Positions 6,121 through 63,751 of a stretch of 64,000 bases of DNA are shown here, in pieces. Every line of letters starts with the position of its first letter. Within the stretch, counting starts at the first letter, position 1. Source of the stretch: Deltaproteobacteria bacterium (lineage in GTDB: Bacteria; Desulfobacterota; GWC2-55-46); contig JACRNO010000060.1 in NCBI GenBank assembly GCA_016234855.1, forward strand, positions 9,595 to 73,594. The letters are read 5' to 3'. Under the pieces are notes generated by a model. That model saw nothing but the letters and a program-made list of their open reading frames with translations, was not told where the DNA came from and did not search any database. The translations under genes were made by a program, and so were the position numbers.

Positions 6121-6164
6121 GGTCGTCGTTTACAGTCCGCCGCGCTCTTCAATGAAATGCGGGC

Positions 6165-7019: not shown

Positions 7020-7160
7020 GACGGTTTGATGGAGTATTTAAGAGTTAGCAGCCGGGCAAACCATAAAAAGAAGCGGGGAATCACGGCGCGGAACCGGAAG
7101 CCATAGACCGCGGGGTATCAAGCCTCACGCAGCGGCCTGCGGCCCCCGCCCATGCGCGTC

Positions 7161-16158: not shown

Positions 16159-16214
16159 GGCCTTTGTCCTTAATACTTAAAATTGTTTGATAACGGCATA
16201 GCCAGGAGACACGA

Positions 16215-17930: not shown

Positions 17931-17947
17931 ATCCCGGTTATCCCGCG

Positions 17948-19168: not shown

Positions 19169-19393
19169 AGTTTTATCTTCTCGTTGGCCGCCCTCGATAT
19201 TCATAAAAACGAATATAAAGAGAAGCAATTATTGAAACTGTCGCCATTGTCATGAGCCGGACTCACGACGTCAAAAAAAATCTCAGTACCTGGGCGCGCC
19301 GTATAAAATCGTCTCTCACAACGGCATGCGATTGTAATTATATCACACTTTTGTCATTCATCAAACCCGGAGACTGAAAGCGGCATGCCGGCC

Positions 19394-20524: not shown

Positions 20525-20587
20525 CTCCTTTCAAGAGAGACCGAGCAAGACCCGTCTCCACGGTATTGGGTCTATTTTAACCCGTAA

Positions 20588-20654
20588 GGACAGTGGTTAG
20601 TGATTAGTATCCACTATCCATTGTCCACTATCCACTAACCACTGTCCACTGTCC
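20588..20654. repeat. Stutter hairpin S2 (CCACTATCC-unit arms)
   Basis: GGACAGTGGTTAGTG...ATCCACTATCCATTGTCCACTATCCACTAACCACTGTCCACTGTCC, with a 15-bp stem GGACAGTGGTTAGTG/CACTAACCACTGTCC. Abuts the pilB stop codon, between pilB and pilT. Confidence 0.6.
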
Positions 20655-22358
20655 CTAATCGGCCATCGTCACCCTCATGATCTCTTCGATGGTGGAGACA
20701 CCCTCAAGCACCTTGGTGATACCGCTCATACGAAGCGTCTTCATCCCGTCTTTGATGGCAATCCTTTTAATCTCCGAGGTAGGGGCGCCGTTCAACACCG
20801 CCTCCTTCAGGGCATCCGTAAAAGGCATGACCTCGTAAAGCGCTATCCTGCCCTTGTACCCGCTTCCGTTGCACGTCGCGCACCCCGCGCCCTTGTAGAC
20901 CTCAACCCCGGCGTCTATAATGTCCTGCGCGACGCCGAAGGTCTTTAACAAGGCCTCGGACGGCTGTGGGGCCTTGACCTTGCAGTCCTTGCATACCTTA
21001 CGGGCGAGCCTCTGGGCCAGGATGAGGTTACATGCGGACGAGACGAGGAACGGTTCTATACCCATGTTAAGCAGCCTGTTAACGGTGCCCGGGGCGTCGT
21101 TCGTATGGAGAGTGGAAAGCACCAAATGACCCGTAAGCGCGGCCTTGACCGCGATCTCGGCCGTCTCATAGTCGCGTATCTCTCCGACCATGATAACGTC
21201 CGGGTCCTGACGCAGGAAGCTCCTCAGCGCCGCCGCGAAGTTCAGGCCGATATCGTCGTGCATCTGACACTGGTTTATGCCGCCGAGATTGAACTCGACT
21301 GGGTCTTCCGCGGTCGAGATATTCTCGCTCACCTTGTTAAGGTCTGAGAGGGCTGAATAAAGCGTCGTCGTCTTGCCGGAGCCGGTCGGGCCGGTGACGA
21401 GGCAGATGCCCCACGGCTTGTGGATGGCGTGCATGAAGTCGTCAAGGGCCTTCTGCTCGAAACCGAGCTTGGTCATGTCGAGCTGCAGGTTGCCCTTGTC
21501 GAGGAGACGCAAGACCGTCTTCTCGCCGAAGAGCGTCGGCAGCACGGAGACGCGGTAGTCCATCTCCTTGTTCTTGGCGAGCTTGAGCTTGATCCTGCCG
21601 TCCTGCGGCAGCCTGCGCTCGGCGATATCGAGATTGGCGATGATCTTTATCCTGGACGTGATGGCGTTTCTGAGCTTCATGGGAGGCTTCATCACCTCCT
21701 GAAGCACGCCGTCAATCCTGTAACGCACGCGGAAGGACTTTTCATAGGGCTCGATATGGATATCGGAGGCGTTCTTCTTGATGGCGTCGGTGAGTATCAT
21801 GTTGACGAGCTTGACGACAGGGGCGTCTTCAACGGCCTTCTTGAGGTCGTTGACGTCGACGTCGTCTTCCTCCCTGACGACCTCCATGTCGGTGTCTTCA
21901 AAATCGCCGAGCATGCCTTCGAGGTTGGCCTCCGGCGATTCATACTGCTTTTCAATGGCGGCCTTTATGGCGGCCTCGGAGGCGATAAGCGGCTCGACGT
22001 TGTAACCGGTAAGGAATTTTATGTCGTCGATTGCGAAGATGTTGGACGGGTCGGCCATGGCCATGACCAACGTGGAGCCGGTCCTGTTAACCGGTATTAT
22101 CTGGTACTTCTGACAGACGTCCTCAGGTATGAGCTTTACGATTTCAGGGTCGATTTCAGCGGCGGCAAGGTCGATGGTGGGTATCCCGTACTGCCTGCTC
22201 AAAAAGGCGGTCAGGTCTTTTTCGGTAATGAATCCGAGCTTGGTGAGATTAAGACCAAGCCGGCCACCGCTCATCTTCTGCTCATCAATAGCCTTTTTCA
22301 ACTGCTCGGCCGTAATAAGCCTCTCTCTAAGTAGTAGTTCGCCGATTCTATCCGCCAT
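20655..22358 (-). CDS. pilB: Type IV pilus assembly ATPase PilB
   Basis: 567 aa. GSPII N-domain, Walker A GPTGSGKTTT, tetracysteine motif (CKDC...CATCNGSG). Confidence 0.9.
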   Translation of the reverse strand: MADRIGELLLRERLITAEQLKKAIDEQKMSGGRLGLNLTKLGFITEKDLTAFLSRQYGIPTIDLAAAEIDPEIVKLIPEDVCQKYQIIPVNRTGSTLVMAMADPSNIFAIDDIKFLTGYNVEPLIASEAAIKAAIEKQYESPEANLEGMLGDFEDTDMEVVREEDDVDVNDLKKAVEDAPVVKLVNMILTDAIKKNASDIHIEPYEKSFRVRYRIDGVLQEVMKPPMKLRNAITSRIKIIANLDIAERRLPQDGRIKLKLAKNKEMDYRVSVLPTLFGEKTVLRLLDKGNLQLDMTKLGFEQKALDDFMHAIHKPWGICLVTGPTGSGKTTTLYSALSDLNKVSENISTAEDPVEFNLGGINQCQMHDDIGLNFAAALRSFLRQDPDVIMVGEIRDYETAEIAVKAALTGHLVLSTLHTNDAPGTVNRLLNMGIEPFLVSSACNLILAQRLARKVCKDCKVKAPQPSEALLKTFGVAQDIIDAGVEVYKGAGCATCNGSGYKGRIALYEVMPFTDALKEAVLNGAPTSEIKRIAIKDGMKTLRMSGITKVLEGVSTIEEIMRVTMAD

Positions 22359-22445: not shown

Positions 22446-22596
22446 TTAAGGAAGCTCTGATTAATTCTGTTATTTGTCATTCCGAGGAGCGCTGTTGCGA
22501 CGAGGAATCTTGTAACTTGCTGAATTGCCTGCGAAACAAGATTTCTCGCTACGCTCGAAATGACAATTTGGTTGAATTAATCAGAGTTTCCTTAAT
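22446..22596. mobile_element. MITE-like element copy 4 (upstream of pilB)
   Basis: TIRs TTAAGGAAGCTCTGATTAATTC (22446-22467) and GAATTAATCAGAGTTTCCTTAA (22575-22596). Internal GTCATTCCGAGGAGCG...CGCTCGAAATGACA palindrome. Confidence 0.65.
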
Positions 22597-31323: not shown

Positions 31324-32415
31324 CTAAACCTTAACGGGCGTGGCGGGCCTCGGCAGGCTCGGCAGATGAAAGCGCATGGTGACGACCGTTCCCTTGCCCG
31401 GTGTGCTCTCGACGGTTATCTCGCCGCCGTGGTCCTGGATTATCCTGTAGGCGATGGTCAGGCCGAGTCCCGCGCCCTGGAACTTCGAGGTCTGAAACGG
31501 GTTGAATATCGTGCGCAGGTCGTCTTTGCCCATGCCGCAGCCGTTATCGCTGACGACAAGCAGCATGGTGTTGTCAAAGGTGGGTTTTGTCTCTATCTTT
31601 ATCTCGCCCTTCTTTTCGATTGCCTCCACCGAGTTCTGCAGGACATTGAAGACGGCCACGCGAAGATTGCCCGCATCCATGTCCATGGGCGGAGGCTGGG
31701 GCATCAGCTCGGTCTTTATGGTTATCTCCTTGCCCTCGTTATCTACAAACTCCCCGGCGTCCCGCACGGCCCCGGCGATGACGTTGTTTATATCCCCTTT
31801 GACGAGCGTGGAGACGAGTATCGTCTTGTACTCGTCAACCCTGTGAAGCATGCGCTCCAAGCGCTCGACCGACTTTATGATGCGCTCGGCATACTCCCTG
31901 TGCTGAGGGTCCGTCTCGTGCTCGTAGAGCCTTCGCGCCATGCCGCCTATGGCGGTCAGCGGGTTACGCACCTCGTGGGCGATGCCGTCAACCATCTCGC
32001 CGAGAGCGGCCATCTTCTCGGTCTCGCGCAGCTTCGTCTGAAGGGCGCGCATCCTCAAGAGAGACTTGACGCGCGCCGCGACCTCCTGCAGGCTGTATGG
32101 CTTGCTGATATAGTCCTCCGCCCCGACCTCAAGACCGAGGACCTTGTCCTCGACCTCGGCCTTGCCGGTGAGCATGATGACCGGCAGATAGCGGGTCTCC
32201 TCCCTTGACTTCAATCGGCGCAGCGTCTCATAGCCGTCCATCCTCGGCATCATGACGTCAAGGATGATAAGGTCGGGCGCGAATATCGGCACCTTCTGCA
32301 GTGCCTCTATCCCGTCTCTGGCCTTCTCAACCTCGTAGCCTACCCGCTCGAACTTCGCGCTAAGGAGCACCAGATTGACATCCTCGTCGTCCACTATGAG
32401 AATCCTCGGCCTCAT
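31324..32415 (-). CDS. Hybrid response-regulator/histidine kinase (REC-HisKA-HATPase_c)
   Basis: N-terminal receiver domain (ILIVDDEDVNL...DLIILDVMMPRMDG), HisKA (GIAHEVRNPLTAI) and HATPase_c. Start overlaps the upstream TPR lipoprotein gene by 4 nt. Confidence 0.8.
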   Translation of the reverse strand: MRPRILIVDDEDVNLVLLSAKFERVGYEVEKARDGIEALQKVPIFAPDLIILDVMMPRMDGYETLRRLKSREETRYLPVIMLTGKAEVEDKVLGLEVGAEDYISKPYSLQEVAARVKSLLRMRALQTKLRETEKMAALGEMVDGIAHEVRNPLTAIGGMARRLYEHETDPQHREYAERIIKSVERLERMLHRVDEYKTILVSTLVKGDINNVIAGAVRDAGEFVDNEGKEITIKTELMPQPPPMDMDAGNLRVAVFNVLQNSVEAIEKKGEIKIETKPTFDNTMLLVVSDNGCGMGKDDLRTIFNPFQTSKFQGAGLGLTIAYRIIQDHGGEITVESTPGKGTVVTMRFHLPSLPRPATPVKV

Positions 32416-33344
32416 CTCGCACCCATCCCTGACAAAGCATCCCTCAACTTCCGATAAAAAACGCCCTTATCCATGTTACCGGCGGCCTCGTTGATTGAAA
32501 TAAGTCCGTCCAGGGCGAAGGCCGCCTCCCTCGCCGTGCCGGAAGCGCTCGCCACCGCATAAAGCCTGTTGAGCGAGAATAACGCATCTTCTGTACGCCC
32601 GATCTTCATCTGTAGAGCCGATATCGAGACAAGGTCGGCCGCAAGCCTTGAGTTGTCCCCTGCCTCGCGGGACGTCTCGTAGGCGCGCTGGTAATAATCG
32701 AGCGCGGGGGCGTCGCTGCCTTCGCGGATATCCGCCTCGGCCAGCGCCCTGTACGAGTTCGCCGTCTCCGGCGCGTCGAGCGCACCCGCGTTCAACCTGA
32801 GCGCGTCAACAAGGACGGACTTCGCCGCGGCCGTCTTGCCTGAGGCGACGAGTATCGCCGCCTTGAGGTTCAGCCGGCCGCCGCTCTTCACGCCGAGACG
32901 TTGGTCAATGGCCAGGGCCGCCTCGATATGCGTCCACGCCGCGTCATGATTTCCGGTCAGGTAATCGGCCTTGGCAAGCGTTGCATAGGCCTCGGAAAGG
33001 TTCTTGTCGTCTTTGAGGAGCTGAGCGAGCGGGACAGCGTCCGCGAGCCAGGCCCGCGCCTCAATGTAGCCGCCAGTGACGACGGCGACCCTCGCAAGGT
33101 TGATAAGGTCAAGGAGTTCGCCCTCGCGGTTGTCAACCGACCTGTCAAGCCTGAGCGCTTCGGCAAAGGCCGAGCGCGCGCCGGCGTAATCGCCGATGCC
33201 GTAAGCATCCACGCCCGCAGCCTTCATCTCGTCGCCTTTTATATGTATGGGGGACGCCTTCTTTTTATCAACTGAGGCGCATCCTGTCAAGACCAAAAAT
33301 ATCGCGGCCAGCGCCAATATGGATATGTGATAACGACGCGTCAT
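32412..33344 (-). CDS. TPR-repeat lipoprotein
   Basis: Lipobox LVLTGC after a signal peptide, followed by multiple TPR-like Ala-rich repeats. Overlaps the mlaD-like stop by 4 nt. Confidence 0.65.
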   Translation of the reverse strand: MTRRYHISILALAAIFLVLTGCASVDKKKASPIHIKGDEMKAAGVDAYGIGDYAGARSAFAEALRLDRSVDNREGELLDLINLARVAVVTGGYIEARAWLADAVPLAQLLKDDKNLSEAYATLAKADYLTGNHDAAWTHIEAALAIDQRLGVKSGGRLNLKAAILVASGKTAAAKSVLVDALRLNAGALDAPETANSYRALAEADIREGSDAPALDYYQRAYETSREAGDNSRLAADLVSISALQMKIGRTEDALFSLNRLYAVASASGTAREAAFALDGLISINEAAGNMDKGVFYRKLRDALSGMGAR

Positions 33345-34351
33345 TTCACGGCCTCCGGCTTGACATCCGGCATCAATGTGCCAGGCGGATATGCGTCGAG
33401 CGGGAGAAGCTCAGGACGCTTTACCGGCTCCGGCGCTGTCAGGCTCCCTACCCACCCTTCCCTGACGCCCTTTATAAGCCCCTTGCCCTCGCTGGCGGCT
33501 GCGGAAGCGTCCGTGATAATCCCGCTTATCCGGGGGGTCTCCTTTGCAAGGGCGTTGCTGAGCGTCTTTACGTTCTCCATTGCATGGTCAAGCTTGCCCA
33601 CGGCCGCGTTGGCCTTCTCAAGTATGCCGTCCACCTTGCCGGCCGCTGGCGCAAGCCCCTCACTCAGGGTCTGGAGGTTCTTGCCTGTCTTGACAAACGA
33701 GTCCATGGCCGGCGTGGCGCGCGCGTCAAGGTTTACAACGAGTTGATTTATCGAGCCTACCGTCCGGTCTATGCCGCTGCGCGTCTGCCTCAGCTCGGCG
33801 GTAAACTCCCTGATATTCGTAATCGACGCCTTGAGGTCTCCCTTGGGGTCGTTGACGTAATGTATGATATCGGCGACCTCCTTGAGTATGGGCTTGGCCC
33901 CCTCTACAAGGGCCTCGATGCCGCCGCTCTTGACAAAGCCTATCTCGTCGCCGTCCTCCAGCACCCGGCCGCCGTCACCGCCGAGGGCTATCTCGATGAA
34001 CGCGTCGCCTATGAAACCCTCCTTGCCGAGCCCGGCCACGGAGTTGCTGCGCACCCACTTCTCGTACTTCTTGTTTATCTCAAGGGTCACCTTCACGCTG
34101 GCCGCCTCGGTCAGGTCGATCTTCTTCACCCTGCCAATCTTGAAGCCGGACAGCTCCACCGGCATGCCGACCTTGAACCCGGCCCCGCTCGCGGAGGTGA
34201 AGTATATCTGGTATTTATGCGTGAAGATATCCTTCTGTATGCCGATAAAGACGATGATGACGATTATCCCGGCCACGGCGGCCGCCACCAGCGCCCCTAT
34301 CTTGACCTCGAGGCCTTTAAACCTTTTATCTTTATCCGTATTCGCCGCCAT
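33341..34351 (-). CDS. mlaD: MCE/MlaD-family substrate-binding protein of ABC transporter
   Basis: N-terminal TM anchor plus MCE domain (IYFTSASGAGFKVGMPVELSGFKIGRVKKIDL) and a long helical C-terminal extension. Confidence 0.8.
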   Translation of the reverse strand: MAANTDKDKRFKGLEVKIGALVAAAVAGIIVIIVFIGIQKDIFTHKYQIYFTSASGAGFKVGMPVELSGFKIGRVKKIDLTEAASVKVTLEINKKYEKWVRSNSVAGLGKEGFIGDAFIEIALGGDGGRVLEDGDEIGFVKSGGIEALVEGAKPILKEVADIIHYVNDPKGDLKASITNIREFTAELRQTRSGIDRTVGSINQLVVNLDARATPAMDSFVKTGKNLQTLSEGLAPAAGKVDGILEKANAAVGKLDHAMENVKTLSNALAKETPRISGIITDASAAASEGKGLIKGVREGWVGSLTAPEPVKRPELLPLDAYPPGTLMPDVKPEAVK

Positions 34352-34396
34352 TTACAAAAACCCCTGTGGATTATACGCATAACGCGGAGCTGTCCG

Positions 34397-35086
34397 TCAC
34401 GCGGATGCGCCGTCTTCGGTTATCCTGTTGTTTTCTATCCGCAAGACCCTGTCGGGCTTGACAAAGGCCGCGTCGAACTTATCGGTTGACGTGACCAGCA
34501 GCAGCCTGGAGCCCGCGCCGGCGTGGTAACCCAATATCAACTCGAACAAACGCGCCCTCTCACCCGAGGTAAGCCCGTCGCCGAGGTTCTCGCAGATGAT
34601 TATCTCCGGGTCAAGGGCGAGAGAGCGCGCGATTGCAATCTGTTTTTTTGCATAGTTCGGCAGCGGCCCGGGCAGCTCCCACGGGTCTCCGGTAAACCCG
34701 GTGGAATCCAGAAGGCTGCGCGCCTTCTTCATGGCCTCGTCATGCGGCATATCCGTGTGATAAAGGAGCGGCAGCGCGCAGTTCTCGATGACCTTGAGGT
34801 TGCTTATCAGGGCGTTATCCTTGATGATGAGCCCAAGCCTGCAGCGCAGGGCGTTCAAGGCGCCGGCATCCAGCACTGAGATATCGTGACCGAGGACGCG
34901 GACAGTCCCCTTGTCCGGGCGCTCAACGCCCGCAAGCCAATTCAGGAAGAGGCTCTTGCCGGAGCCAAGCGGCGCCGCAAGGAAAACCTTCTCCCCGTTG
35001 CCGAGACTCAGATTAACGTCTTCGAATAGCAGGCGTCCGTCGCCGGAATAGGCGTATACGTTGGTTAACTCGACAAGCGCCGGCAC
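34397..35086 (-). CDS. MlaF-like ABC ATP-binding protein with degenerate catalytic motifs
   Basis: ABC fold in which Walker A is APLGSGKS, the signature LSGGQ is replaced by LPNYAK, and Walker B is IIICEN (no catalytic D-E). Probably non-hydrolytic. Confidence 0.7.
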   Translation of the reverse strand: MPALVELTNVYAYSGDGRLLFEDVNLSLGNGEKVFLAAPLGSGKSLFLNWLAGVERPDKGTVRVLGHDISVLDAGALNALRCRLGLIIKDNALISNLKVIENCALPLLYHTDMPHDEAMKKARSLLDSTGFTGDPWELPGPLPNYAKKQIAIARSLALDPEIIICENLGDGLTSGERARLFELILGYHAGAGSRLLLVTSTDKFDAAFVKPDRVLRIENNRITEDGASA

Positions 35087-35114
35087 ATATCACCGCCTGG
35101 CCGCGGCAGCGGCC

Positions 35115-35936
35115 TTACATGTAGAATATCGAAGTTATAACCGCGTCCAGAAAGAAAACGGATGTGAGGCTCCGCATGACGGCGCGGGTCGTCACCTGCG
35201 GTATCTGCGTTATGCTCTTTCTCACGAGAAGCCCCTGATACGAGCACACAGCGCCTATTATAAGTCCGAAGACGGCGCTCTTCAAGAGCGAAACGGCTAT
35301 GTCAAGCAGCCCCATCGCCTCAAGCAGGCTTGCGAAGTATGCGTGAAAGGTAACGCTGCCGCCGAAACCGGCCAGCACGAAACCGCCCACGATGGAGACG
35401 GCCTCGAAACAGAAGGTCAGCACCATGACGCTTACCGCCGTGCCGATTATCCTCGGGGCCACGAGATAACGCACAGGGTCTATGCCCATCAACTCAAGGG
35501 CGGTAAGCTCGCGGCCTATCTTCATGCTCCCGAGTTCCGCCGCAATGGCCGTGCCGCTCCGCGCTATCACTATGACGGCGGCAAAGACAGGCCCGGCCTC
35601 CCTGATAACGACCCAGACGAGAATCTTTCCGACAAGGGATTCGCCTCCGAGCCCCGGCAGTATCGAGAGCGCCTGGGCGACGACCACAAAACCGAGGATA
35701 AGGGCTATCCACGAGATGATGGGCACGGCCTCGTAACCGGTGAAGTAGACCTGCCTGAAAAAAACGTCCACGACCACCCTGCGCCCGCGCTTCATCCCTG
35801 TAAAGGCGGCGCTTAGCGCATAGATGATAAGGCTCCATACGGAGGAGACCTCTCTGGCTCGCGCAAGCGCGGCGCGCCCTATATATCCGAAGAGATTAAT
35901 CAAATGACAGACCCCAATCCGGTTGTTAAAAACCAA
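35115..35936 (-). CDS. mlaE: MlaE-family ABC transporter permease
   Basis: Polytopic membrane protein with MlaE motifs (QVYFTGYEAVPII...VVIREAGPVFAAVIVIARSGTAIAAELGSMKIGRELTALELMGIDP). Confidence 0.85.
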   Translation of the reverse strand: MVFNNRIGVCHLINLFGYIGRAALARAREVSSVWSLIIYALSAAFTGMKRGRRVVVDVFFRQVYFTGYEAVPIISWIALILGFVVVAQALSILPGLGGESLVGKILVWVVIREAGPVFAAVIVIARSGTAIAAELGSMKIGRELTALELMGIDPVRYLVAPRIIGTAVSVMVLTFCFEAVSIVGGFVLAGFGGSVTFHAYFASLLEAMGLLDIAVSLLKSAVFGLIIGAVCSYQGLLVRKSITQIPQVTTRAVMRSLTSVFFLDAVITSIFYM

Positions 35937-35999
35937 TCCCCCGTCACCCCGCTAATAGGGGCGCCGGGGGATAATCAGTATATGGGTGAGCGCCTCTGT

Positions 36000-36755
36000 C
36001 TAAAACTCGGCCTTTAGCGCGGCGTAAGGGCCTTTAAGCGTGAATGCGCCGAGGTTATTATCCTTCTCAAAATGGAACTTCAAGACCCTGTATCCGCCGG
36101 AGACCGAAAGAAACGCCGCCAGTTTCATGGTGACCGCCGCCTCGGCGTCATAGAGGTACTTGTCCGAAGCGACCTTGGCGCCCGTAGCCTCGGCGCTGAT
36201 GTTTATCAGATACGGCAGCCCGACCTGAAAGAGAAACCCCATTGTCGGCACCGCCACCTTCATCGACTTCGACTCGTTAAGCCCGGCGGACGGGGCGTTT
36301 ATGCCGGCGCTTATATCGAAATACTTTATATCGAAGATGTAGCCGGCCTTGTTGTTGAGCTTATCGACGGCGTCGTACTCCCATCCGAGACGATGGTAGT
36401 TCACCTTCAACTCGGACGTAACCGGGGTCGAGGCCGAATAGGTCTTGCCGTTAAAAACGACGCTCCTGGATATGGTCGCGGCAGCGTTCCACTTGAGCGG
36501 CACAAAGGAGTACCTTATCTTGTTGGAGGCGTCGCCGAGCGAAGCGCGCACCTCCCAGAATTTCTTCTTCTTCTCGAAACCAAGGTCGCCGACCGGATCC
36601 AAATTCGTGCCGTCGGAAGAGCCGTTGGATATCCTTATCTTGCTGTCGAAAGAGGTGAACCAGTACCTGCCCTCGACTGCTACAAGGGCCATGGCGTCCG
36701 AGGCGGCAAGAACAGCCATGACCGTCAGCAATAGGGTTATCAGAGTCTTCTTCAA
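36000..36755 (-). CDS. Putative outer-membrane beta-barrel protein
   Basis: TTG start at 36755 after an AGGAGG SD gives signal peptide MKKTLITLLLTVMAVLAASDAMA. Alternating amphipathic beta pattern and a C-terminal aromatic residue (…ALKAEF). The track ORF is extended to 36854. Confidence 0.6.
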   Translation of the reverse strand: MKKTLITLLLTVMAVLAASDAMALVAVEGRYWFTSFDSKIRISNGSSDGTNLDPVGDLGFEKKKKFWEVRASLGDASNKIRYSFVPLKWNAAATISRSVVFNGKTYSASTPVTSELKVNYHRLGWEYDAVDKLNNKAGYIFDIKYFDISAGINAPSAGLNESKSMKVAVPTMGFLFQVGLPYLINISAEATGAKVASDKYLYDAEAAVTMKLAAFLSVSGGYRVLKFHFEKDNNLGAFTLKGPYAALKAEF

Positions 36756-37017
36756 ACGTATGCCTCCTGAAGGATACAGGTAACGGCGGGGTTGGAAGAT
36801 ATCCGCCGTTCCTTCAACAACACCGCGCCAACACAGCTCGTCACTTTCGCCCACAGGTAAGAAGGCCGGGGCAGGCCTTAACCTGCCCCGGCCTGAAGGA
36901 CATTATCCGGTCTGATTCAGGAAAGACAAACACCCATGCCTCAATCAGCGCATCTGCCCAATGCCATTGCCGTTACAAAACTCCCCGCCGTTAAAAAAAA
37001 CAGAGCGGGAATTGAGC

Positions 37018-37860
37018 CTACTTGAGGACAAAGACGACCTTTGCGCCCTCAAGATAGTGGCTGTTCTGGTTCGACGTGAATATCGCGCTCGCGTCGTCCG
37101 GGCCGACCTCGACGTCGGTCGACTTGACGACCCCGCTTATCTTGACGACCGCCGGGTTTACCGCGCCGCGCTCGCCAAGCAGCGCCTTGGCCTTGCCCAC
37201 GTCATTCGTGTACTCGGCAGCGCCGCGCTCAACGAGGATATTCTGGGCGACCTTGGCCGGGTCGTATACGACCTCGCCGCTCTTTGTCATTACCCTGTTT
37301 ATAAGGGCCGGCTTGAACGGCTGCTCGCGCACGTCGAGTATCAGGCCGTCGTAATTGACCACAGCCGCAGGCGCGACAGGCGGCGCCATGTAAGGCGGGG
37401 CAGCCGAGGGCGCCATAAGCATCTGCGGCAATAGCGAGCCGACAAGGCCGTTGGAACCGGTCATGGGCATGGAGAGGTATACGATGGCAATCTCGCTTAC
37501 CGGGTCATAGACCTCTTTGACGACCTGCGCGCCCTTTACAAGGCCCTGTACCGTGGCCCTGATGGTGTCGGATGCCGCCGCAGCCGAGACGACGGTCGTC
37601 TCGCCGCTGATGGCTATGCCGTCAACCACCTCGGACAGCTCCCTTGCGGCCATTATCTTTGCGGCGCGCAGCGCCATAATCCTCTTCTGCGCGGGCGACA
37701 TCGGCCTGTCTGAGGGGGCCGCGCCCTCGCCCTTTACAACGAGCGCGCCGCTGACGAGCGCCTTGCCCGTGTCCCTGACCTCCTGCGGCATATCGGTTTG
37801 CGCCATAGCCGAGACGGCAAAAAGAAGAACGAATAACGGTATTAAAAGGAACTTTTTCAT
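37018..37860 (-). CDS. Secreted LPP20/FlgP-like domain protein
   Basis: Signal peptide MKKFLLIPLFVLLFAVSAMA. The region GKALVSG...AQKRIMALRAAKIMAARELSEVVDGIAISGETTV...ATVQGLVKGAQVV fits the LPP20-like pattern. Ala/Pro-rich linker and a C-terminal beta domain. Confidence 0.5.
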   Translation of the reverse strand: MKKFLLIPLFVLLFAVSAMAQTDMPQEVRDTGKALVSGALVVKGEGAAPSDRPMSPAQKRIMALRAAKIMAARELSEVVDGIAISGETTVVSAAAASDTIRATVQGLVKGAQVVKEVYDPVSEIAIVYLSMPMTGSNGLVGSLLPQMLMAPSAAPPYMAPPVAPAAVVNYDGLILDVREQPFKPALINRVMTKSGEVVYDPAKVAQNILVERGAAEYTNDVGKAKALLGERGAVNPAVVKISGVVKSTDVEVGPDDASAIFTSNQNSHYLEGAKVVFVLK

Positions 37861-38020
37861 CCATCGCCTCCTTGACAGTTAATTGCCCGCCCTATAAAAA
37901 AGCATGGGCGGCGGGATTCATGCTCCCCCTCATTTCAAAAAGAGAGGGCAAAACGCATCCCCTCTTTCAAGAGGGGAGGTTGATACTCCCCCCATTGAAA
38001 AAGGGGGGCCGGGGGGGATT

Positions 38021-39247
38021 TTAATTAATGTTTATCCTGTGCCTTAAAACCCTTATCGCGAGTATGGCCTCCGCGCCGTCAACGACCGCATCGGGGCGGA
38101 AGTCGCCGGAAAGCTCGGTCTCCATGATGCTGCGCGTCGTCACGCTCATGACGGCGTTATACCATGCGGCGGAAGGCGCGACGTCCGGGAACGGAGACTT
38201 GTCCTGCCCGAAATAGGCGCTGGCAAGCTTCTCGTCGCCCGTGAGCTTTATAAGGACGTCTTCGAGCACCATGGCGAACTGCTTGCGCGTGACCGGCTCA
38301 TCCGGCCTGAACAGATACGCCCGCGTGGTCTCGTCATATACAGGCTCAAGCCCGCGCACGCCCCACTTCATCAGGGTCAGTATCTCGCCCTTGAACGGGC
38401 TTGCCATCACGTCGGCAGGCGTAAAATCGGCCTTCATCTTTGCCAGGTTCGATTCGGACGGGATGCGCCCGGCGAAGAGCTTGTCGACCTTGAGCTCGTC
38501 GACCAGGAGTGCCGCCATGTCGGCGCGCGTCACTGACTCCTGCGTCGCTATGGTCTTACCCACGTCGCCGACGGTGATGCCGGCCATTGCCCTTACTATC
38601 TTGTCGGTCTTGTTCCAGTACTTCTCGGCAAGCGGCGCCCACCTGCTCGAGACCTTCTCGTTTATGACGTCAGCGAACCTGTCCCTTGCGGACTGGAAGA
38701 CCTTGCCCTCAAGATAGGCTCTGCCCATGTAATACATCGCCGCTTCCCTGCCGTCGTAGTAGAGGAGCTTTCTATCGTCCACCTTGAGCTTCATCGCCGC
38801 CTTGTAGTGGTCTTCGGCGTCGTTGAGCCACTTGCCGGGCTTAAGAAGCATGTCGCTGCGTATGGCCGCGACGTGATACGCAAACGCGTCCTCGTCGGTA
38901 TTTGCATTCTTCTCCGACGTCTTGAGCGACTCGGCAGCCTTGTCAGCGTCGACCTTCATATAAGCCGCGTCCTTCTGCGCCTTATACTTGGCAACGGCCT
39001 TCTCCGAGTTCACGATACCGAGGCCCGAATAGGCCGGGCCGAAGCCCTGTTCGCAGGTAATCGCCCTCTGGAACTTGCCTTCAGCCTCGTCTACATTGCC
39101 CTGCTCGACCAGCTCCATGCCCTTGAGATAATGATGCTGCGGGTTATCCTCCGGGGTAATACATTCGGACACGTGCTTGGCGCAGCCGGCCGATATCAGA
39201 AAAAGCAGCGCCAGGCCTATCAACGGGAACCTACCAATCTTAGTCAC
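38021..39247 (-). CDS. Lipoprotein with TPR-like N-terminal region and two SLH-like C-terminal repeats
   Basis: GTG start at 39247 after a GGAGG SD gives MTKIGRFPLIGLALLFLISAGC (lipobox). C-terminal FPDVAPSAAWYNAVMSV...VTRKQFAMVL and ESVTRADMAALLVDEL resemble S-layer-homology repeats. The SLH assignment is tentative. Confidence 0.5.
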   Translation of the reverse strand: MTKIGRFPLIGLALLFLISAGCAKHVSECITPEDNPQHHYLKGMELVEQGNVDEAEGKFQRAITCEQGFGPAYSGLGIVNSEKAVAKYKAQKDAAYMKVDADKAAESLKTSEKNANTDEDAFAYHVAAIRSDMLLKPGKWLNDAEDHYKAAMKLKVDDRKLLYYDGREAAMYYMGRAYLEGKVFQSARDRFADVINEKVSSRWAPLAEKYWNKTDKIVRAMAGITVGDVGKTIATQESVTRADMAALLVDELKVDKLFAGRIPSESNLAKMKADFTPADVMASPFKGEILTLMKWGVRGLEPVYDETTRAYLFRPDEPVTRKQFAMVLEDVLIKLTGDEKLASAYFGQDKSPFPDVAPSAAWYNAVMSVTTRSIMETELSGDFRPDAVVDGAEAILAIRVLRHRININ

Positions 39248-39282
39248 GTTTGCAACCTCCTTTATTTGATTACAACCTGAGA

Positions 39283-39370
39283 CTTGTATGTGGGATGTAG
39301 TATGTGGGATGTGGCAAAGTCTTCTATGCTTTCCGCCTTCCACTTCCCACATCCTACATCCCACCTCCCT
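39283..39370. repeat. Stutter hairpin S3 (TGTGGGATGT-unit arms)
   Basis: TGTGGGATGTAGTATGTGGGATGTGG...CCACTTCCCACATCCTACATCCCACC, about 26-bp imperfect arms. Intercistronic between the CsgG-like gene and the SLH-like lipoprotein gene. Confidence 0.6.
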
Positions 39371-39384
39371 TTTTTGCCTGAAAA

Positions 39385-40350
39385 CTACCGCGACTGCCGT
39401 ATCACGTCCCCTGCCTGAAAACCGCTCCCCGCGCGCACGGACGCCTCGGATATCTTCTCGTTCTGATGCGCCGTAAGCGTTATCTCGCCTATCTTCTTCT
39501 CGCGCTTGCCTATGACCCTTCCGGTATCCGGGTCAACGAGGTCCTGACCGGGACGGAGCACGTCGAATACCGAACCTTCCGGCAGACGGGACCTCATGCC
39601 GGCCTTGATTATTATGACGGAGCCGTCAACGGCAAGCACCCTGCCCTGGAACGGCTGCTGGTTGAGTTTTTCCACCATCCTCGTCATGGCCTTGGTAAGC
39701 GCATCGCGCAGCGCGCCCTCGCGAAGTCCCACGTCGGCCGTGGACTTTGAACCGAGACCCAGCACGCCCCCTGTCTTTTTCCTGTATTCGCCCATACCGG
39801 ATTCGGCGACGAGGCTCCTGCCGGTGGCCACGTCAACAAGGGCGTAGTCCACCTGTACGCGCGCAATCTGGGTCTTGCTCTGAGCGACCAGCACGTTGGA
39901 GCCTTCCTCAAGCTCGGAGTATGATGTGATGGAGCCTGATATCCTGTAATCCACCGACTCCATGCCCTCGGCCGCGTTCTTCAGCCCGGTCTTTACTGCC
40001 CCGGTCTGCTGCAGGGCTATCATCTTCTCCTGTGCGCGCATATCGTCGTCCGTAAGGCTTATCGGCTCGAGGCCGGACTTCTTCACGATGGTGCGCAGGA
40101 TATCGGTCGCGGCCTCGCCTATGCCAAGCACCCTGCCGGGCGTCTTGTTGGCGAACGTAAGTATCGCCACGTTATACTGCGGCCCGTTGTACTGCGCGCC
40201 CGCCTCTTCAAGTTTTCCGGTCTGACCGGTGACGCTGACGTCCTCCTTTACCGCTCCGGTTATGGTGGGCGAGCATGAGGCCGTTGAGATGAGCATTGCC
40301 GAGAGCACGGCCAGGAGGCCAAGATTCATCGATAACTTTCTTTTAGCCAT
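39385..40350 (-). CDS. CsgG-family outer-membrane lipoprotein (curli-secretion-channel-like)
   Basis: Lipobox LISTASCS. Motifs YNVAILTFANKT, ATDILRTIVKKSGLEPIS, VDYRISGSITSY and QVDYALVDVATGRSL parallel E. coli CsgG (KIFVSVYNIQDETG, LVTALKDS, ANIMVEGSIIGYE, NLRVVNVSTGEIL). Confidence 0.7.
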   Translation of the reverse strand: MAKRKLSMNLGLLAVLSAMLISTASCSPTITGAVKEDVSVTGQTGKLEEAGAQYNGPQYNVAILTFANKTPGRVLGIGEAATDILRTIVKKSGLEPISLTDDDMRAQEKMIALQQTGAVKTGLKNAAEGMESVDYRISGSITSYSELEEGSNVLVAQSKTQIARVQVDYALVDVATGRSLVAESGMGEYRKKTGGVLGLGSKSTADVGLREGALRDALTKAMTRMVEKLNQQPFQGRVLAVDGSVIIIKAGMRSRLPEGSVFDVLRPGQDLVDPDTGRVIGKREKKIGEITLTAHQNEKISEASVRAGSGFQAGDVIRQSR

Positions 40351-40509
40351 ATTTTCACCCCTTTAAATAATAACCCGGTTTTAACGGCCCGGACGGTCAG
40401 TGCCACCGTTTTAACGTAGCGCAGGCCTTCAGGCCTGCATCTGTAAAGTGAGAACAGCCCACCAAAACTACCAGTGAACCGAAATGATGGACAGCGCTAC
40501 CCTGCTTGA

Positions 40510-41289
40510 CTAACCGCCTGTCATCTCCCCTCTCGGGAAATCAGACATTATCCTGTCGAGCATCTCTGACGATTCAAAATACAAATGGACGCCGAAGGCC
40601 TGGGTTACAAGCTGCTCGCCGAGCGAGAAGAGGGCGGCGTTGCCAACGGACTTTTCATGATGGCTGTACGAGGTCTTCCAATCAGACAGGCCCGGCACGC
40701 CTGCAAGCCCAGGTATCGCACTGGATATCTCGTCGTCGCTCCTGTCCGTCACCTGGGAGAGCGCGGCTATGCCCGCGCCTATCTCGCCCGCGCTGTGTAT
40801 CTCGCTCTTGACCCCTGCGGCGCGCGACCAGACGACCGCGCCGGTCTTCACATCGACGAGCTTGAAACCGGCCCTGACCTTGTTGACGTTATAGACGCCC
40901 GTCGTTATCGTGTTAAAGTCCAGCAGATACCCGTACAGGAGATAATCAACCCCGAGTTCCGCGCCTATGGCCTGAGGGGTGGTCAGGTCGAGCTGAGCCC
41001 CGAGCGTTATGCCCATGCGGTCGGCCAGTATCCGGTCGACGTCCGCAAGCGGCAGGTTCCTGTAGCGGGCCTTGCGCATCCTTTCAATTGCCTGCTCGCG
41101 CACCATCTGCGGGCCGTCCACGTCGTTTGTCGCGTTATAGACGGGCAAGACGGCTACGGTGCGAACGAAACGTGCCTCATCCGGGTTGCCCTTGAACGCG
41201 GCACAGGCGCTCAAAACGGACGCCATGACACAGATTAGCAGGATATAAAAGGCGCCTGGCCGCCGCCTTGAGACGCCTCTATCCGCCAT
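40510..41289 (-). CDS. DUF799/GNA1162-like lipoprotein (CsgG-partner family)
   Basis: Lipobox SVLSAC. VAVLPVYNATND...GVDYLLYGYLLDF...GFKLVDVKTGAVVW fits the lipoprotein family that is found next to CsgG-like genes in many Proteobacteria. Assignment is from memory of the family pattern. Confidence 0.5.
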   Translation of the reverse strand: MADRGVSRRRPGAFYILLICVMASVLSACAAFKGNPDEARFVRTVAVLPVYNATNDVDGPQMVREQAIERMRKARYRNLPLADVDRILADRMGITLGAQLDLTTPQAIGAELGVDYLLYGYLLDFNTITTGVYNVNKVRAGFKLVDVKTGAVVWSRAAGVKSEIHSAGEIGAGIAALSQVTDRSDDEISSAIPGLAGVPGLSDWKTSYSHHEKSVGNAALFSLGEQLVTQAFGVHLYFESSEMLDRIMSDFPRGEMTGG

Positions 41290-41310
41290 CTACTCCCCTT
41301 GACAAAACAC

Positions 41311-41459
41311 TTAAGGAACCTCTGATTAATTCATTTCTTTTCTGTCATTCTGAGGAGCGAAGCGACGAAGAATCTCGTAACTTGTTGAATTTCTTAGAAG
41401 CGAGATTCTTCGCTTCGCTCAGAATGACACCATTGTGGAATTAATCAGAGGTTCCTTAA
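41311..41459. mobile_element. MITE-like element copy 6 (compact 149-bp archetype)
   Basis: Perfect TIRs TTAAGGAACCTCTGATTAATTC (41311-41332) and GAATTAATCAGAGGTTCCTTAA (41438-41459). Internal palindrome GTCATTCTGAGGAGCGAAGCGACGAAGAATCTCGTAACTTG...CGAGATTCTTCGCTTCGCTCAGAATGACA. Confidence 0.7.
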
Positions 41460-41532
41460 TAATATTAAAGCGTTACATCATGCGTCTTCTGATTGTTTCG
41501 CAGCAAGGCTCGGCGCGCCGCTGCCCCAGGCC

Positions 41533-42741
41533 TTACTGCCCCTGCATCACCGCGTCTATGGTATTCGCGGACGTGGACAATATCCTGATCCTCCCGTTCG
41601 GAAGCCTTGCAAGGTCGTCGGCAATCTGCTGGGCCGGGACCTTCACGTCAAGGTCGAATACGGCTGTGCCGTCTTCAAAACGCCGCTGGTATATATTGAC
41701 CACGCCTCTGATGTTTTTCTTGAGAATATTCTTGAAATCAGCCGTCTTCGTGTAATCGGCAAGGCCGGCAATCCTTATCGTGACCGTGTTGCCGCGTGTC
41801 CATTTGGCGATAATCTGCTCTATCAGCTTGTCCGCCGCCTCGGACGCGGCCCTTGCGGATGCGTCCACACCGCCGGAAGTCTTCGATATGTGCCTTGACG
41901 CCCCGTGCCCCTTTGCGCTGGCAAGCACCGTGCCATCATCCACGCGTATCACGTCAACGGAGATATCGGCAAGGTACGAGCCGATAGTTGAACCTGCAAG
42001 CCTCATCCCCTCGGTCACTACGGATTTTCCCTTGACCACGAGTTCGGCGTTCAGGCCGCGGCCAATCCTGCGCGCCCTGTCCCTGGAAAGCCCGGATGAC
42101 GAACCTCCAGGCACATCGGGCGAGGCTGAGATATCCACGACCTGAAACCCCTTGTTCAAAAAGACCTCTTTCATGGACGACTCAGCAGCCGGCATCTCGG
42201 AATCGTCGCCTTCGACAACGCGCAGGGTATCGTTATCAAGGCCAAGCCCCTTTTCAGTTATAAGAAAGAGTATGCGCGGCTTTTCGACCTTGACCATCAG
42301 GAGGCCCAACGCGTCGAGGTCGTTTCTTATCTCCCCCATAGCCACGGTCGCATGGACCGTAACCTGATAGGTATCCTGCACCTGTCCTTCCCTGAGGACG
42401 TTATAATCGCGCACGTAACCCTGCGTCTTCGTATATACGTTGTCGTTAAGCACCTGATAGTCCTGCACCATAGTCTCGGACGATACAAGCAGGCCCACGG
42501 CCTGCTCAACGGCCTTACGCAAGGCGTCGTTTACAGCCGCATCCCTCGCAACCAGGGTATTGCCGCCGGAGATGACGGCATAGCCCGTGGCATCGACCGT
42601 CTTAAGTTCGGGCGCATCCACGGCAAAAGCCGCCCCGCCAACCGCCATAAAAAAGAGAACGATGAGCGCGGCCGCAAGGACGCGAGCATGTGTTAACATC
42701 GCGGCGAAGTAACTGGTCTGAGCCATAGTCATATTATACAC
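41533..42741 (-). CDS. Secreted protein with two or three LPP20/FlgP-like repeats
   Basis: Signal peptide. Repeated modules of the form G(Y/S)AVISGG...ARDAAVNDALRKAVEQAVG...V...D, with a second at ELVVKGKSVVTEGMRLAGSTIGSYLADISVDVIRVDDG. 402 aa, no enzymatic motifs. Confidence 0.45.
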   Translation of the reverse strand: MYNMTMAQTSYFAAMLTHARVLAAALIVLFFMAVGGAAFAVDAPELKTVDATGYAVISGGNTLVARDAAVNDALRKAVEQAVGLLVSSETMVQDYQVLNDNVYTKTQGYVRDYNVLREGQVQDTYQVTVHATVAMGEIRNDLDALGLLMVKVEKPRILFLITEKGLGLDNDTLRVVEGDDSEMPAAESSMKEVFLNKGFQVVDISASPDVPGGSSSGLSRDRARRIGRGLNAELVVKGKSVVTEGMRLAGSTIGSYLADISVDVIRVDDGTVLASAKGHGASRHISKTSGGVDASARAASEAADKLIEQIIAKWTRGNTVTIRIAGLADYTKTADFKNILKKNIRGVVNIYQRRFEDGTAVFDLDVKVPAQQIADDLARLPNGRIRILSTSANTIDAVMQGQ

Positions 42742-52029: not shown

Positions 52030-52180
52030 ATTAAGGAACCTCTGATTAATTCGCAAACGTATGTCATTCTGAGCGGAGCGAAGAATCTCGTATATAGGCA
52101 AATCAACAAGTTACGAGATTCTTCAGTCGCTGCGCTCCTTCAGAATGACAGTAGGACAGAATAAATCAGAGCTTCCTTAA
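52030..52180. mobile_element. MITE-like element copy 7
   Basis: TIRs TTAAGGAACCTCTGATTAATTC (52030-52051) and GAATAAATCAGAGCTTCCTTAA (52159-52180). Same internal GTCATTCTGAGCGGAGCGAAGAATCTCGTA...CAAGTTACGAGATTCTTC...CAGAATGACA palindrome. Confidence 0.7.
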
Positions 52181-60395: not shown

Positions 60396-60690
60396 TTAAG
60401 GAAGCTCTGATTTATTCTGTCTTATTGTCATTCTGAAGGAGCGCAGCGACTGAAGAATCTCGTAACTTGTTGATTTGCCTATATACGAGATTCTTCGCGG
60501 AGTTTACCCTGAGCGAAAAACTGAGATTCTTCGCTTCGCTCAGAATGACATAGCGAAGGGCTCATAATGACATACGTTTGCAATTAATCAGAGCTTCCTT
60601 AACTCGAATTCGTCATTCCCGCGAACGCGGGAATCCAGAAATCACCAAGAGACTGGATTCCCGACTAAAGCATCGGGAATGACATTTATA
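60396..60690. mobile_element. MITE-like element copy 8 (composite: TIR-bounded unit 60396-60602 plus appended GTCATTCCCGCG...CGGGAATGACA module)
   Basis: TIRs TTAAGGAAGCTCTGATTTATTC and CAATTAATCAGAGCTTCCTTAA. The internal palindrome is duplicated/expanded. 60603-60690 carries the GGGAATCCAG...CTGGATTCCC module also seen at 30995-31090. Confidence 0.65.
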
Positions 60691-63585: not shown

Positions 63586-63751
63586 AAAAAACCTCCATAG
63601 AATTGCGGATACTTCCACAAAGCTGAATCCGCCGGCCAATGTCGGATGTTAATTCCTTCTGGCTATATCGCGCATACAACCCTTCCTAAACATACACATC
63701 CGGACGTACGCGTCATAAACCGCCGCTGCCCGATTCGCAGCGCGAACGGGC

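Follow-up and report, generated by a model that had tools for sequence, protein, structure and literature searches.

A conserved, lipoprotein-rich envelope gene module without assigned function in uncultured bacteria

Introduction

Does a cluster of genes for exported proteins, one of them a CsgG-like lipoprotein, encode a secretion channel or another kind of envelope structure? The five genes in question (A to E) lie in a window of 64,000 nucleotides, which is the whole stretch of DNA that was analysed. A sequence-only reading had seen in them an envelope-spanning secretion or assembly system built around a CsgG-like channel. The follow-up described here suggests that the module looks more like the lipoprotein rings of the Vibrio flagellar motor plus a wall anchor than like a curli-type pore.

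Results

The cluster and its export signals

The ORF list of the window contains the five co-directional minus-strand ORFs at the positions first proposed, and export signals, read directly from the sequence, are present on all five products, with lipoboxes on three of them (B, C and D). ORF and profile searches revealed no enzyme, ATPase or inner-membrane protein among the products. The term "envelope-spanning" is therefore unsupported, since the core has no inner-membrane component. On the other hand, the original family calls (DUF799, CsgG superfamily, LPP20/FlgP-like and SLH) proved essentially right in profile searches.

Genes A and B

Gene A (41533..42699, minus strand) probably starts at 42699 and encodes 388 aa, although its ORF runs to 42741, since an identical database protein has this length. 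It encodes a periplasmic protein with an export site of the signal peptidase I type (AFA/VD). The N domain of this protein is FlgT_N/LPP20-like and its alpha/beta middle domain CsgG/FlgO-like, and about 85 aa at the C terminus form a third domain without family match. Pfam FlgT_N matches A at 3e-8 and was found in 34/34 homologues, a few of which also match CsgG, FlgO, DUF6175 or DUF2066, and NCBIfam LipL46 matches A in part (2e-14). Short versions from Nitrospirota and gammaproteobacteria keep the middle domain only (residues 150-316). The N domain is homologous to that of E (hhalign probability 96%), and its comparison by hhalign with the remainder of A gave no internal LPP20 repeats. Instead of the repeated LPP20-like modules once described, A thus carries a single FlgT_N/LPP20-like module, and for this reason its interpretation as a multi-LPP20 scaffold or plug fails.

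Gene B (40510..41289, minus strand) encodes a GNA1162-like (DUF799) lipoprotein of the PelC/LpoB-type alpha/beta fold, with VLSA/C as lipobox and the motifs VAVLPVYNATN and GVDYLLYGYLLDF. The DUF799-like identity proposed together with the first motif is borne out by Pfam (GNA1162-like 5e-11, LpoB 5e-5) and by PDB matches to GNA1162 (4hrv, 1.4e-6) and PelC (0.012), which make B a clear homologue of Neisseria GNA1162 and a weak one of the ring protein PelC. The Neisseria-type GNA1162 neighbourhood includes DUF4810. As the earlier reading noted, such neighbourhoods and the present cluster both combine a DUF799 lipoprotein with a lipoprotein of the CsgG superfamily, whereas the third partner here is the FlgO/CsgG-like middle domain of A, with or without FlgT_N.

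Genes D and E

Gene D (38021..39247, minus strand) encodes a lipoprotein (lipobox SAG/C) whose N half is TPR-like and whose C half comprises two SLH repeats and a degenerate third segment. This agrees with its initial description, as Pfam SLH matches it in two stretches (4e-15) and the TPR matches are weak. The Arg of its motifs TRAD and TRKQ is conserved in 45 homologues. In the SLH-based outer-membrane tethers of the OmpM and SlpA types the anchor is a porin barrel. D likewise joins SLH repeats with conserved Arg motifs to a predicted outer-membrane anchor, but this anchor would be a lipid and a TPR region, and its hosts are Nitrospirota, Nitrospinota and delta lineages, in which Pal-, Lpp- and OmpA-type tethers are expected.

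Gene E (37018..37860, minus strand) encodes a periplasmic protein with the export site AMA/Q. Its N domain is FlgP/LPP20-like, its C domain resembles Tp0624 D2, and a linker rich in Pro and Ala joins the two. Profile searches placed B as GNA1162-like, C (weakly) as CsgG and D as SLH, but the E sequence alone had no Pfam or NCBIfam match. Its family profile nevertheless matches FlgP/LPP20 structures in the PDB (1.2e-14 and 5.7e-11), in line with the secreted LPP20-like protein first suggested. The AF2 model of E matches Treponema pallidum Tp0624 (PDB 5jir; Foldseek 1.3e-9 over 258 columns) over the tandem D1-D2 unit. Unlike Tp0624, E is devoid of the OmpA-like D3 domain, and wall binding here would fall to the separate SLH lipoprotein. 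A part in the organisation of wall and envelope has been proposed for Tp0624 (PMC5104382).

Gene C and the channel question

Gene C (39385..40350, minus strand) encodes a lipoprotein (lipobox TAS/C, LxGC across the family) made up of an alpha/beta domain of the CsgG superfamily and a beta domain like those of FlgT_C/TsaP. Its resemblance to CsgG (PF03783; PDB 4uv3, 6si7) stands in part. The two share the alpha/beta core, lipid modification and two hairpins with a basal Tyr, and Pfam CsgG matches C above the gathering cut-off, though weakly (23.2 bits against 20.8) and over profile positions 70-199 only; against the verified E. coli CsgG sequence, by contrast, the C profile was insignificant (hhalign probability 1.6%).

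An oligomeric outer-membrane channel of the CsgG type (type VIII-like), with B, A and E as adaptors or plug and a substrate encoded elsewhere, would agree with the Pfam score and with the label CsgG already given to C homologues by public pipelines. It would also agree with the two amphipathic beta-hairpins that occupy the TM1/TM2 positions. Both have a basal Tyr (Y144 and Y189, invariant in a 34-sequence alignment), and the first hairpin forms a long two-stranded arm in the AF2 model (the AF2 models are of moderate quality, with a mean pLDDT of 72). Against such a channel, the hairpins fall short of those of CsgG by 6 and 3 residues and bear the invariant residues E146, E148, E149 and K159, and the constriction-loop position holds 7 residues instead of 14, without Tyr-Asn-Phe. 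C has in addition the FlgT_C-like domain, and the cluster is devoid of CsgE, F, A and B. As was originally noted, the ORFs of the window that were scanned include no curli or flagellar gene, and neither csgA/B/E/F-like genes nor a conserved candidate substrate gene occurred in the neighbourhoods examined. With the CsgG constriction loop absent and the hairpins shortened, the curli-type pore is not upheld, and a channel of this kind appears unlikely. The mean hydropathy of the hairpins is -0.29 and -0.52, while that of CsgG is only slightly higher (-0.09 and -0.06). Since both hairpins are present and their hydropathy is little below that of CsgG, they may form a shallow barrel.

The C model also matches the FlgT middle and C-terminal domains, and its C-terminal domain matches the TsaP repeats of the PilQ-TsaP structure 6ve2 (2e-5). 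No other member of the cluster is as conserved as C, which shows 63-68% identity between Nitrospinota and the window, whereas A, B, D and E show 27-44%. So high a conservation relative to its partners fits a protein with many fixed interfaces.

Conservation of gene order and neighbouring genes

Conservation of the gene neighbourhood, a check set by the sequence-only reading, holds in at least three phyla. B immediately precedes C in every locus compared (76/76), and in 52 of 62 the upstream genes include A or its middle domain. D and E accompany A-B-C in Nitrospinota, in delta lineages and in part of the Nitrospirota. In the first two groups D lies next to C, and D and E are adjacent; in Nitrospirota they belong to the same co-directional operon. 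This linkage supports the original view of a conserved, lipoprotein-rich envelope module.

The cluster is bordered upstream by an M20 peptidase, while downstream an outer-membrane beta-barrel is followed by MlaEFD. The barrel gene F (36000..36755, minus strand; TIGR04219-like, NCBIfam 2e-12) encodes a small protein that ends in Phe, and it has a TTG start with an AGGAGG ribosome-binding site. Of 56 loci, 32 contain it, and just two of these 32 are from outside delta/Thermodesulfobacteriota. It is a neighbour of some lineages outside the core. The genes for MlaE, MlaF, MlaD, a TPR lipoprotein and a response-regulator/histidine-kinase hybrid (31324..35936, minus strand) keep their synteny within the delta clade alone and probably lie outside the module.

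That MlaE, MlaF and MlaD follow the cluster on the same strand, in a gene order kept by many delta loci, could point to A-E as outer-membrane partner of the MlaEFD (MCE) lipid transporter, in the role of a PqiC-type lipoprotein ring. Nevertheless, MlaD is linked in just 17/50 loci and in none of Nitrospirota or Nitrospinota, so that co-occurrence outside the delta clade is already seen to be absent, and some delta loci retain C-D-F without Mla. Moreover, a GC-rich hairpin with a perfect 13-bp stem (36863..36894, minus strand), the probable end of the A-E transcription unit, lies 3' of the E stop codon, and together with a gene that has its own ribosome-binding site it separates E from the downstream genes. 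As the synteny takes in the unrelated M20 peptidase, it may reflect shared ancestry rather than function. Such a partnership is highly improbable.

A TPR lipoprotein and an adjacent barrel could suggest the outer-membrane end of a Pel- or alginate-like exopolysaccharide export route, with B and C as PelC-like funnels, D as an AlgK/PelB-type TPR scaffold and F as porin. Nitrospirota operons, which also encode a fusion of DUF799 with a beta-helix (NosD/CASH-type) and a CHASE2 nucleotide cyclase, would be in keeping with this. PelB and AlgE, the known porins of these routes, are however far larger than F (about 230 aa mature), which is missing outside the delta clade, and the annotated neighbourhoods hold no linked glycosyltransferase, synthase, polysaccharide-modifying or c-di-GMP receptor gene. 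There is very little probability that the cluster serves this purpose.

Type IV pilus genes had been regarded as the flanking machinery, but PilB/T/C with PilS/R (14749-22358) and PilQ (60757-63639) are 15-20 kb off, beyond housekeeping genes. Their presence in the window along with a chemoreceptor, the TsaP match of C and the FlgT-, FlgP- and FlgT_N-like domain content would agree with an accessory ring of a trans-envelope machine encoded elsewhere, either a flagellar motor (H-ring or basal disk) or a type IV pilus secretin (TsaP-like ring). Against this, no flagellar or pilus gene adjoins the cluster in the window or in Pfam-annotated neighbourhoods, except for an MshE-type ATPase gene on the opposite strand of a single Nitrospirota locus, and the surroundings of the operon, which stands by itself, differ greatly between genomes. 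A ring dedicated to such a machine is distinctly improbable.

Hairpins and repeats

The large hairpin reported between C and D (39290..39364, minus strand; 25-nt arms), which in the earlier reading hinted at differential expression within the operon, is real (dG -48 kcal/mol, z -5.8). It occurs once in the window and was missing from all 85 related loci compared; in one syntenic relative the C-D gap is just 9 nt. A larger palindrome, absent from the earlier reading, occupies the A-B gap (41311..41459). This dispersed, MITE/REP-like repeat of about 150 nt has nested inverted repeats (dG -96.7 kcal/mol, z -7.6) and further copies in the window at 22446-22595, 52031-52180 and 60396-60602. Finally, a terminator-like hairpin is found in the D-E gap (37958..37977, minus strand), and such sites do not exceed the chance number in the region.

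Discussion

The Vibrio H-ring consists of concentric rings made by FlgT, FlgP and FlgO, the last two of which are lipid-anchored beneath the outer membrane, where the motor has no membrane pore (bioRxiv 10.64898/2025.12.02.691832). Its inventory (PDB 3w1e, 8z5n, 9yds) is shared by the cluster in FlgT_N (A), the FlgT middle and C-terminal domains (C model), a FlgP/LPP20 domain (E) and a lipoprotein of TolB-N/FlgO-type fold (B). In contrast to the H-ring, the FlgT domains are divided here between two proteins, B is DUF799 and not FlgO, an SLH/TPR lipoprotein and a Tp0624-D2-like domain are added, and flagellar genes are absent from the vicinity of the operon, which occurs by itself in non-flagellar settings.

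The reading preferred here, which falls somewhat short of probable, is that A-E build an H-ring-like periplasmic ring scaffold that is anchored in the outer membrane and held to the wall by the SLH lipoprotein. It is suggested by the export of all five products, three with lipoboxes, without enzyme, ATPase or inner-membrane protein; by the homologous FlgP-like and FlgT_N domains of E and A, whose Vibrio counterparts belong to poreless lipid-anchored rings; by the SLH Arg motifs of D and the Tp0624 D1-D2 likeness of E; and by the gene linkage across loci, the outstanding conservation of C and the lack of a conserved candidate substrate gene in the neighbourhoods examined. Several observations count against this scaffold. 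C keeps both TM1/TM2-position hairpins with near-CsgG hydropathy, the fold class also has true transport parts (CsgG, PelC, PqiC, LptE), and such rings usually surround something, while a partner machine is not among the genes found.

In the proposed scaffold, the assembly would sit on the periplasmic face of the outer membrane and would be no pore in its own right. Its cross-phylum core consists of three paralogous-fold proteins, namely the middle domain of A and the lipoproteins B and C, which all have the CsgG/PelC/LpoB/FlgT-M/TolB-N alpha/beta fold. E and the FlgT_N domain of A may extend the ring as accessory parts, as in the Vibrio H-ring, and D, as an outer-membrane lipoprotein, would fasten it to peptidoglycan or to a polymer of the wall.

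A-E is a conserved, lipoprotein-rich and previously unstudied envelope module without assigned function, carried by several phyla of uncultured bacteria. Its role in these organisms would be structural, as a scaffold or tether between outer membrane and cell wall, possibly surrounding or docking another envelope machine.

Organization of the gene cluster

Five open reading frames, named A to E in the order of transcription, lie on the minus strand at 37018-42741, where the sequence-only reading had placed a cluster of exported proteins, and an export signal was seen in all five translations. A (41533-42741) and E (37018-37860) carry signal peptidase I signals, read from the translation as ...GGAAFA/VD and ...VSAMA/QT, respectively; E is not a lipoprotein. 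B (40510-41289), C (39385-40350) and D (38021-39247, with a GTG start) possess the lipoboxes VLSA/C, TAS/C and SAG/C. The start of A is probably at 42699, as an identical database protein has 388 amino acids. In the matching groundwater metagenome-assembled genome (MAG), labelled "Deltaproteobacteria bacterium", HZB85_07700 to 07710 are the corresponding locus tags. Downstream of E lies a perfect 13-bp GC hairpin, and the neighbouring gene for a small outer-membrane beta-barrel, F (36000-36755, minus strand), carries its own ribosome-binding site, so that A to E plausibly form one transcription unit.

The hairpin between C and D, from which differential expression within the operon had been suspected, does exist, but it was rejected as a conserved regulatory element because its sequence occurs only once in the window and in none of 85 related loci. 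The C-D gap amounts to 9 nt in one syntenic relative. The gap between A and B is occupied by a palindrome of about 150 nt (41311-41459; RNA dG -96.7 kcal/mol, z -7.6) that is one of at least four full copies which a dispersed element has in the window. Further copies are found at 22446-22595, 52031-52180 and 60396-60602, the last immediately beside the gene for the PilQ secretin (60757-63639; 960 aa, three AMIN domains), and solo ends near 584, 12435 and 13551. With its 22-nt terminal inverted repeats TTAAGGAACCTCTGATTAATTC and inner core GTCATTCTGAGCGAAGCGA, the element resembles an intergenic repeat of the MITE/REP type. The window also contains a complete elongasome operon, mreB-mreC-mreD-pbp2-rodA, at 2580-8192.

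Domain composition of A, B, D and E

A was matched by the Pfam family FlgT_N (PF16548, 3e-8), which is present in 34/34 A homologues, and partially by LipL46 (2e-14). The middle of the protein forms a CsgG/FlgO-type alpha/beta domain of its own, as a few homologues match CsgG, FlgO, DUF6175 or DUF2066, and an unrelated C-terminal domain follows. Repeated LPP20 modules had been proposed for A; when its N domain was compared by hhalign with the rest of the protein, middle and C-terminal, nothing was returned, and a second LPP20-like unit within A was ruled out on the lack of any match beyond the N domain. A and E share a homologous N domain (hhalign probability 96%). In the A-family alignment, most homologues contain a Trp-rich FWWWG insertion after the first middle-domain strand, and the window copy lacks it around residues 150-175.

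The DUF799-like lipoprotein was borne out in B by a Pfam match to the GNA1162-like family (PF05643, 5e-11, 42.9 bits against a cut-off of 25.9), by homology to the solved GNA1162 structure (PDB 4hrv, 1.4e-6) and by the lipobox; LpoB (5e-5) and PelC (0.012) were matched as well. The SLH-like repeats announced for D were also recovered: PF00395 matches in two stretches (4e-15, 55.9 bits), recognised as two repeats with a degenerate helix upstream of both, and the Arg of the TRAD and TRKQ motifs is conserved in 45 homologues. TPR similarity in D is weak. E alone gave no Pfam (LPP20 included) or NCBIfam match, and its LPP20-like domain is supported through the family profile, which matches the flagellar protein FlgP at 1.2e-14 (9hmf) and 5.7e-11 (Vibrio FlgP, 8z5n). 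LPP20 itself (PF02169) is weakly matched by one Nitrospirota paralogue. The AF2 model of E resembles the D1-D2 tandem of the Treponema pallidum protein Tp0624 (1.3e-9; PMC5104382).

The shared fold of A, B and C rests on Pfam cross-matches and structure searches; paralogy of their alpha/beta domains was not upheld by hhalign, which gave weak scores only (E 0.005-0.03). From these family assignments, the observations of the sequence-only reading are largely right, except on two points, the repetition of modules in A and what flanks the cluster.

C, a CsgG relative with FlgT architecture

C had been read as a CsgG-like channel. In support of the family assignment, it scores 23.2 bits against Pfam CsgG (PF03783; cut-off 20.8, E 4.7e-5), although only over profile positions 70-199 of 210, and its lipobox, TAS/C in the window and LxGC in the family, has a Cys that is invariant across 34 homologues. 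C belongs to the CsgG superfamily. The AF2 monomer prediction, of moderate confidence (mean pLDDT 72), shows two domains, first an alpha/beta and then a beta domain. Foldseek placed Vibrio FlgT on top (3w1e, 1.9e-15 over 294 columns; 8z5n, 5.9e-15), with CsgG ranking after it (2.5e-10 over about 213 columns). The FlgT middle and C-terminal domain architecture is thus present in C, whose C-terminal domain also resembles the FlgT_C-like repeats of TsaP (2e-5).

With an E. coli CsgG reference sequence that is 100% identical to PDB 3x2r, the C-family profile aligned weakly (hhalign E 0.031, probability 1.6%), the TM1 hairpin being shortened by a 6-residue deletion. The beta-1/alpha-1 loop, site of the constriction in CsgG, is GRVLGIG in C, 7 residues instead of 14 and without Tyr-Asn-Phe, so that a curli-type constriction is absent. 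None of csgE, csgF, csgA or csgB was found among the window ORFs scanned, as the first reading had stated, nor in the Pfam-annotated related neighbourhoods.

Where CsgG has TM1 and TM2, C contains two amphipathic hairpins that start from invariant tyrosines, are 6 and 3 residues shorter than their CsgG counterparts and carry the invariant residues E146, E148, E149 and K159. By mean hydropathy they are slightly more polar than TM1 and TM2 of CsgG (-0.29 and -0.52 versus -0.09 and -0.06), a difference too small to exclude a pore. Such hairpins may or may not be able to build a barrel like the 36-strand one of CsgG; a CsgG-type pore lacking the constriction we consider unlikely.

A scan of 1.84 billion representatives recovered 29 clusters at E <= 1e-30, and the number rose to 570 at <= 1e-10 and to 2593 at <= 1e-3. 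The C-family clusters looked up are metagenomic entries that pipelines have named CsgG, and none of ten more distant representatives, all metagenomic, is a named or cultured relative. C stands out for its conservation, with 55-85% identity among MAGs that bear the labels Deltaproteobacteria/Thermodesulfobacteriota, Nitrospirota, Nitrospinota and Gammaproteobacteria. Compared with the Nitrospinota copies, C is 63-68% identical and its partners A, B, D and E 27-44%. This suggests either an unusually tight structural constraint on C or its recent transfer between phyla.

Conservation of the module across phyla

Linkage was counted in 80 genomic loci encoding C relatives and in seven loci from contig look-ups, each denominator being the loci with enough sequence. 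B lies directly upstream of C in 76/76 loci and A upstream of B in 52/62, while D and E were found downstream of C in 45/68 and 36/64. In most Nitrospirota loci and in the gammaproteobacterial ones, A has 206-250 aa and is reduced to the middle domain (residues 150-316 of A). What is universal is thus a core of three proteins of one fold class, namely B, C and the middle domain of A.

Gene order varies around this core. D and E follow C in the delta and Thermodesulfobacteriota loci. Nitrospinota loci have E before D (C-E-D) and continue with an NHL-CsgG fusion, a further paralogue of A and a FecR-like gene; in one such locus (L003, 6641-10868) the fusion is a 734-aa protein of TolB-like architecture, accompanied by a second FlgT_N paralogue and the FecR-like protein, with an adjoining PilZ-domain gene on the opposite strand. 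In Nitrospirota a single co-directional operon reads D, E, E, DUF799/beta-helix fusion, CHASE2 nucleotide cyclase, A, B, C. In two of these loci (L086, 1768-6484; L087, 3113-7767), the fusion of about 910 aa joins a GNA1162-like domain to a NosD/CASH-type beta-helix, and it sits with the CHASE2 class III nucleotide cyclase between D-E-E and A-B-C. The fusion and the cyclase hint at carbohydrate handling and cyclic-nucleotide control. The five families are kept together despite rearrangements in three phyla, and this co-location speaks for the functional unit that had been proposed.

Other neighbours are more restricted. F was a neighbour of C in 32/56 loci and MlaD in 17/50, in the delta clade in all but one. 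Synteny of F, MlaEFD, the TPR lipoprotein and the response-regulator/kinase is confined to the delta clade, in which an unrelated M20 peptidase is equally syntenic, and these genes are treated as neighbours by descent. The conserved block at 32412-36755 comprises F, a TIGR04219-like small barrel, MlaE, MlaF and a long MlaD of 336 aa, and the TPR lipoprotein, with a 4-nt overlap between its start and the MlaD stop; this block could by itself constitute a trans-envelope MCE system. That the A-E products act as the outer-membrane partner of this MCE transporter, in the manner of a PqiC-type ring, is very improbable despite the proximity, since C has no consistent linkage to MCE genes; a functional link to MlaEFD was rejected on the clade-limited linkage in the locus census.

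A predicted periplasmic ring scaffold

Proteins of the core fold form oligomeric rings at or under the outer membrane, such as the CsgG nonamer, the PelC dodecamer and the ring of 26 FlgT copies. To our knowledge, this is true of every solved oligomeric relative. PqiC and PA3214 octamers are rings of the same core fold (PMC13631591). In the Vibrio H-ring, which lies under the outer membrane at the flagellar motor, FlgT, FlgP and FlgO form concentric rings; lipid anchors hold FlgP and FlgO in the inner leaflet, and at this site the motor makes no pore in the membrane (bioRxiv 10.64898/2025.12.02.691832). Like the H-ring, the cluster encodes FlgT_N, FlgT middle and C domains, a FlgP-like protein and same-fold lipoproteins. 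Unlike FlgT, where N, middle and C domains share one polypeptide, the N domain is in A and the middle-plus-C pair in C. The cluster further differs from the H-ring by an SLH/TPR lipoprotein that is predicted to bind the wall.

The A-E products may accordingly be pictured as a periplasmic ring scaffold anchored in the outer membrane and tethered to the wall by D. This reading is favoured by the ring-forming relatives, the H-ring parts list and the finding of no enzyme, ATPase, inner-membrane protein or conserved substrate in the A-E cluster. We hold it tentatively, at somewhat less than an even chance, and ring formation, localisation and wall binding are what we infer from these comparisons.

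An accessory ring for flagella or type IV pili encoded elsewhere in the genome would account for the same domains. The cluster, unlike H-ring genes, has no flagellar gene context: flagellar genes are missing among the window ORFs scanned, as first noted, and flagellar families (flgH/I, motX/Y context) are missing from five annotated neighbourhoods. Type IV pilus machinery had been described as flanking the cluster; PilQ and PilB/T/C with PilS/R (14749-22358) lie 15-20 kb away with housekeeping genes between, and a pilus link was rejected on this distance. Such an accessory role thus appears quite unlikely. A role as end-piece of a Pel-like polysaccharide exporter we regard as very improbable because no Pel/alginate-type synthase, modifying enzyme or large porin is linked in the annotated neighbourhoods, F being a small barrel.

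Within the favoured ring scaffold, a more specific and more doubtful version is a free-standing, non-flagellar counterpart of the flagellar H-ring/basal disk, in which concentric lipoprotein rings of C, B, A-middle and E, suspended below the outer membrane, would be stapled to the wall by the SLH/TPR lipoprotein. It would represent a previously unrecognised type of tether or scaffold in Nitrospirota, Nitrospinota and related delta lineages, and such a module could be of the kind from which flagellar outer rings were recruited.

Significance

A literature search found no description of the A-E module. Its parts belong to known superfamilies; new is a predicted CsgG/PelC/FlgT-class lipoprotein ring assembly that is neither curli nor flagellar and is combined with an SLH anchor. 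Pipelines already label C a curli channel, and this label is probably misleading for the whole family, so far found in metagenomes only. The operon unites flagellar outer-ring domains (FlgT, FlgP) with DUF799 and an SLH anchor, and it is common to several phyla, including lineages assigned to Nitrospira and Nitrospinota. If it encodes a ring scaffold or tether, it would constitute a new connection between outer membrane and wall and be relevant to how flagellar accessory rings arose. If it encodes a pore, it would provide a CsgG relative without constriction, of interest for secretion biology and nanopore work. Either way, it offers a first testable model for the DUF799/CsgG-like pairing.
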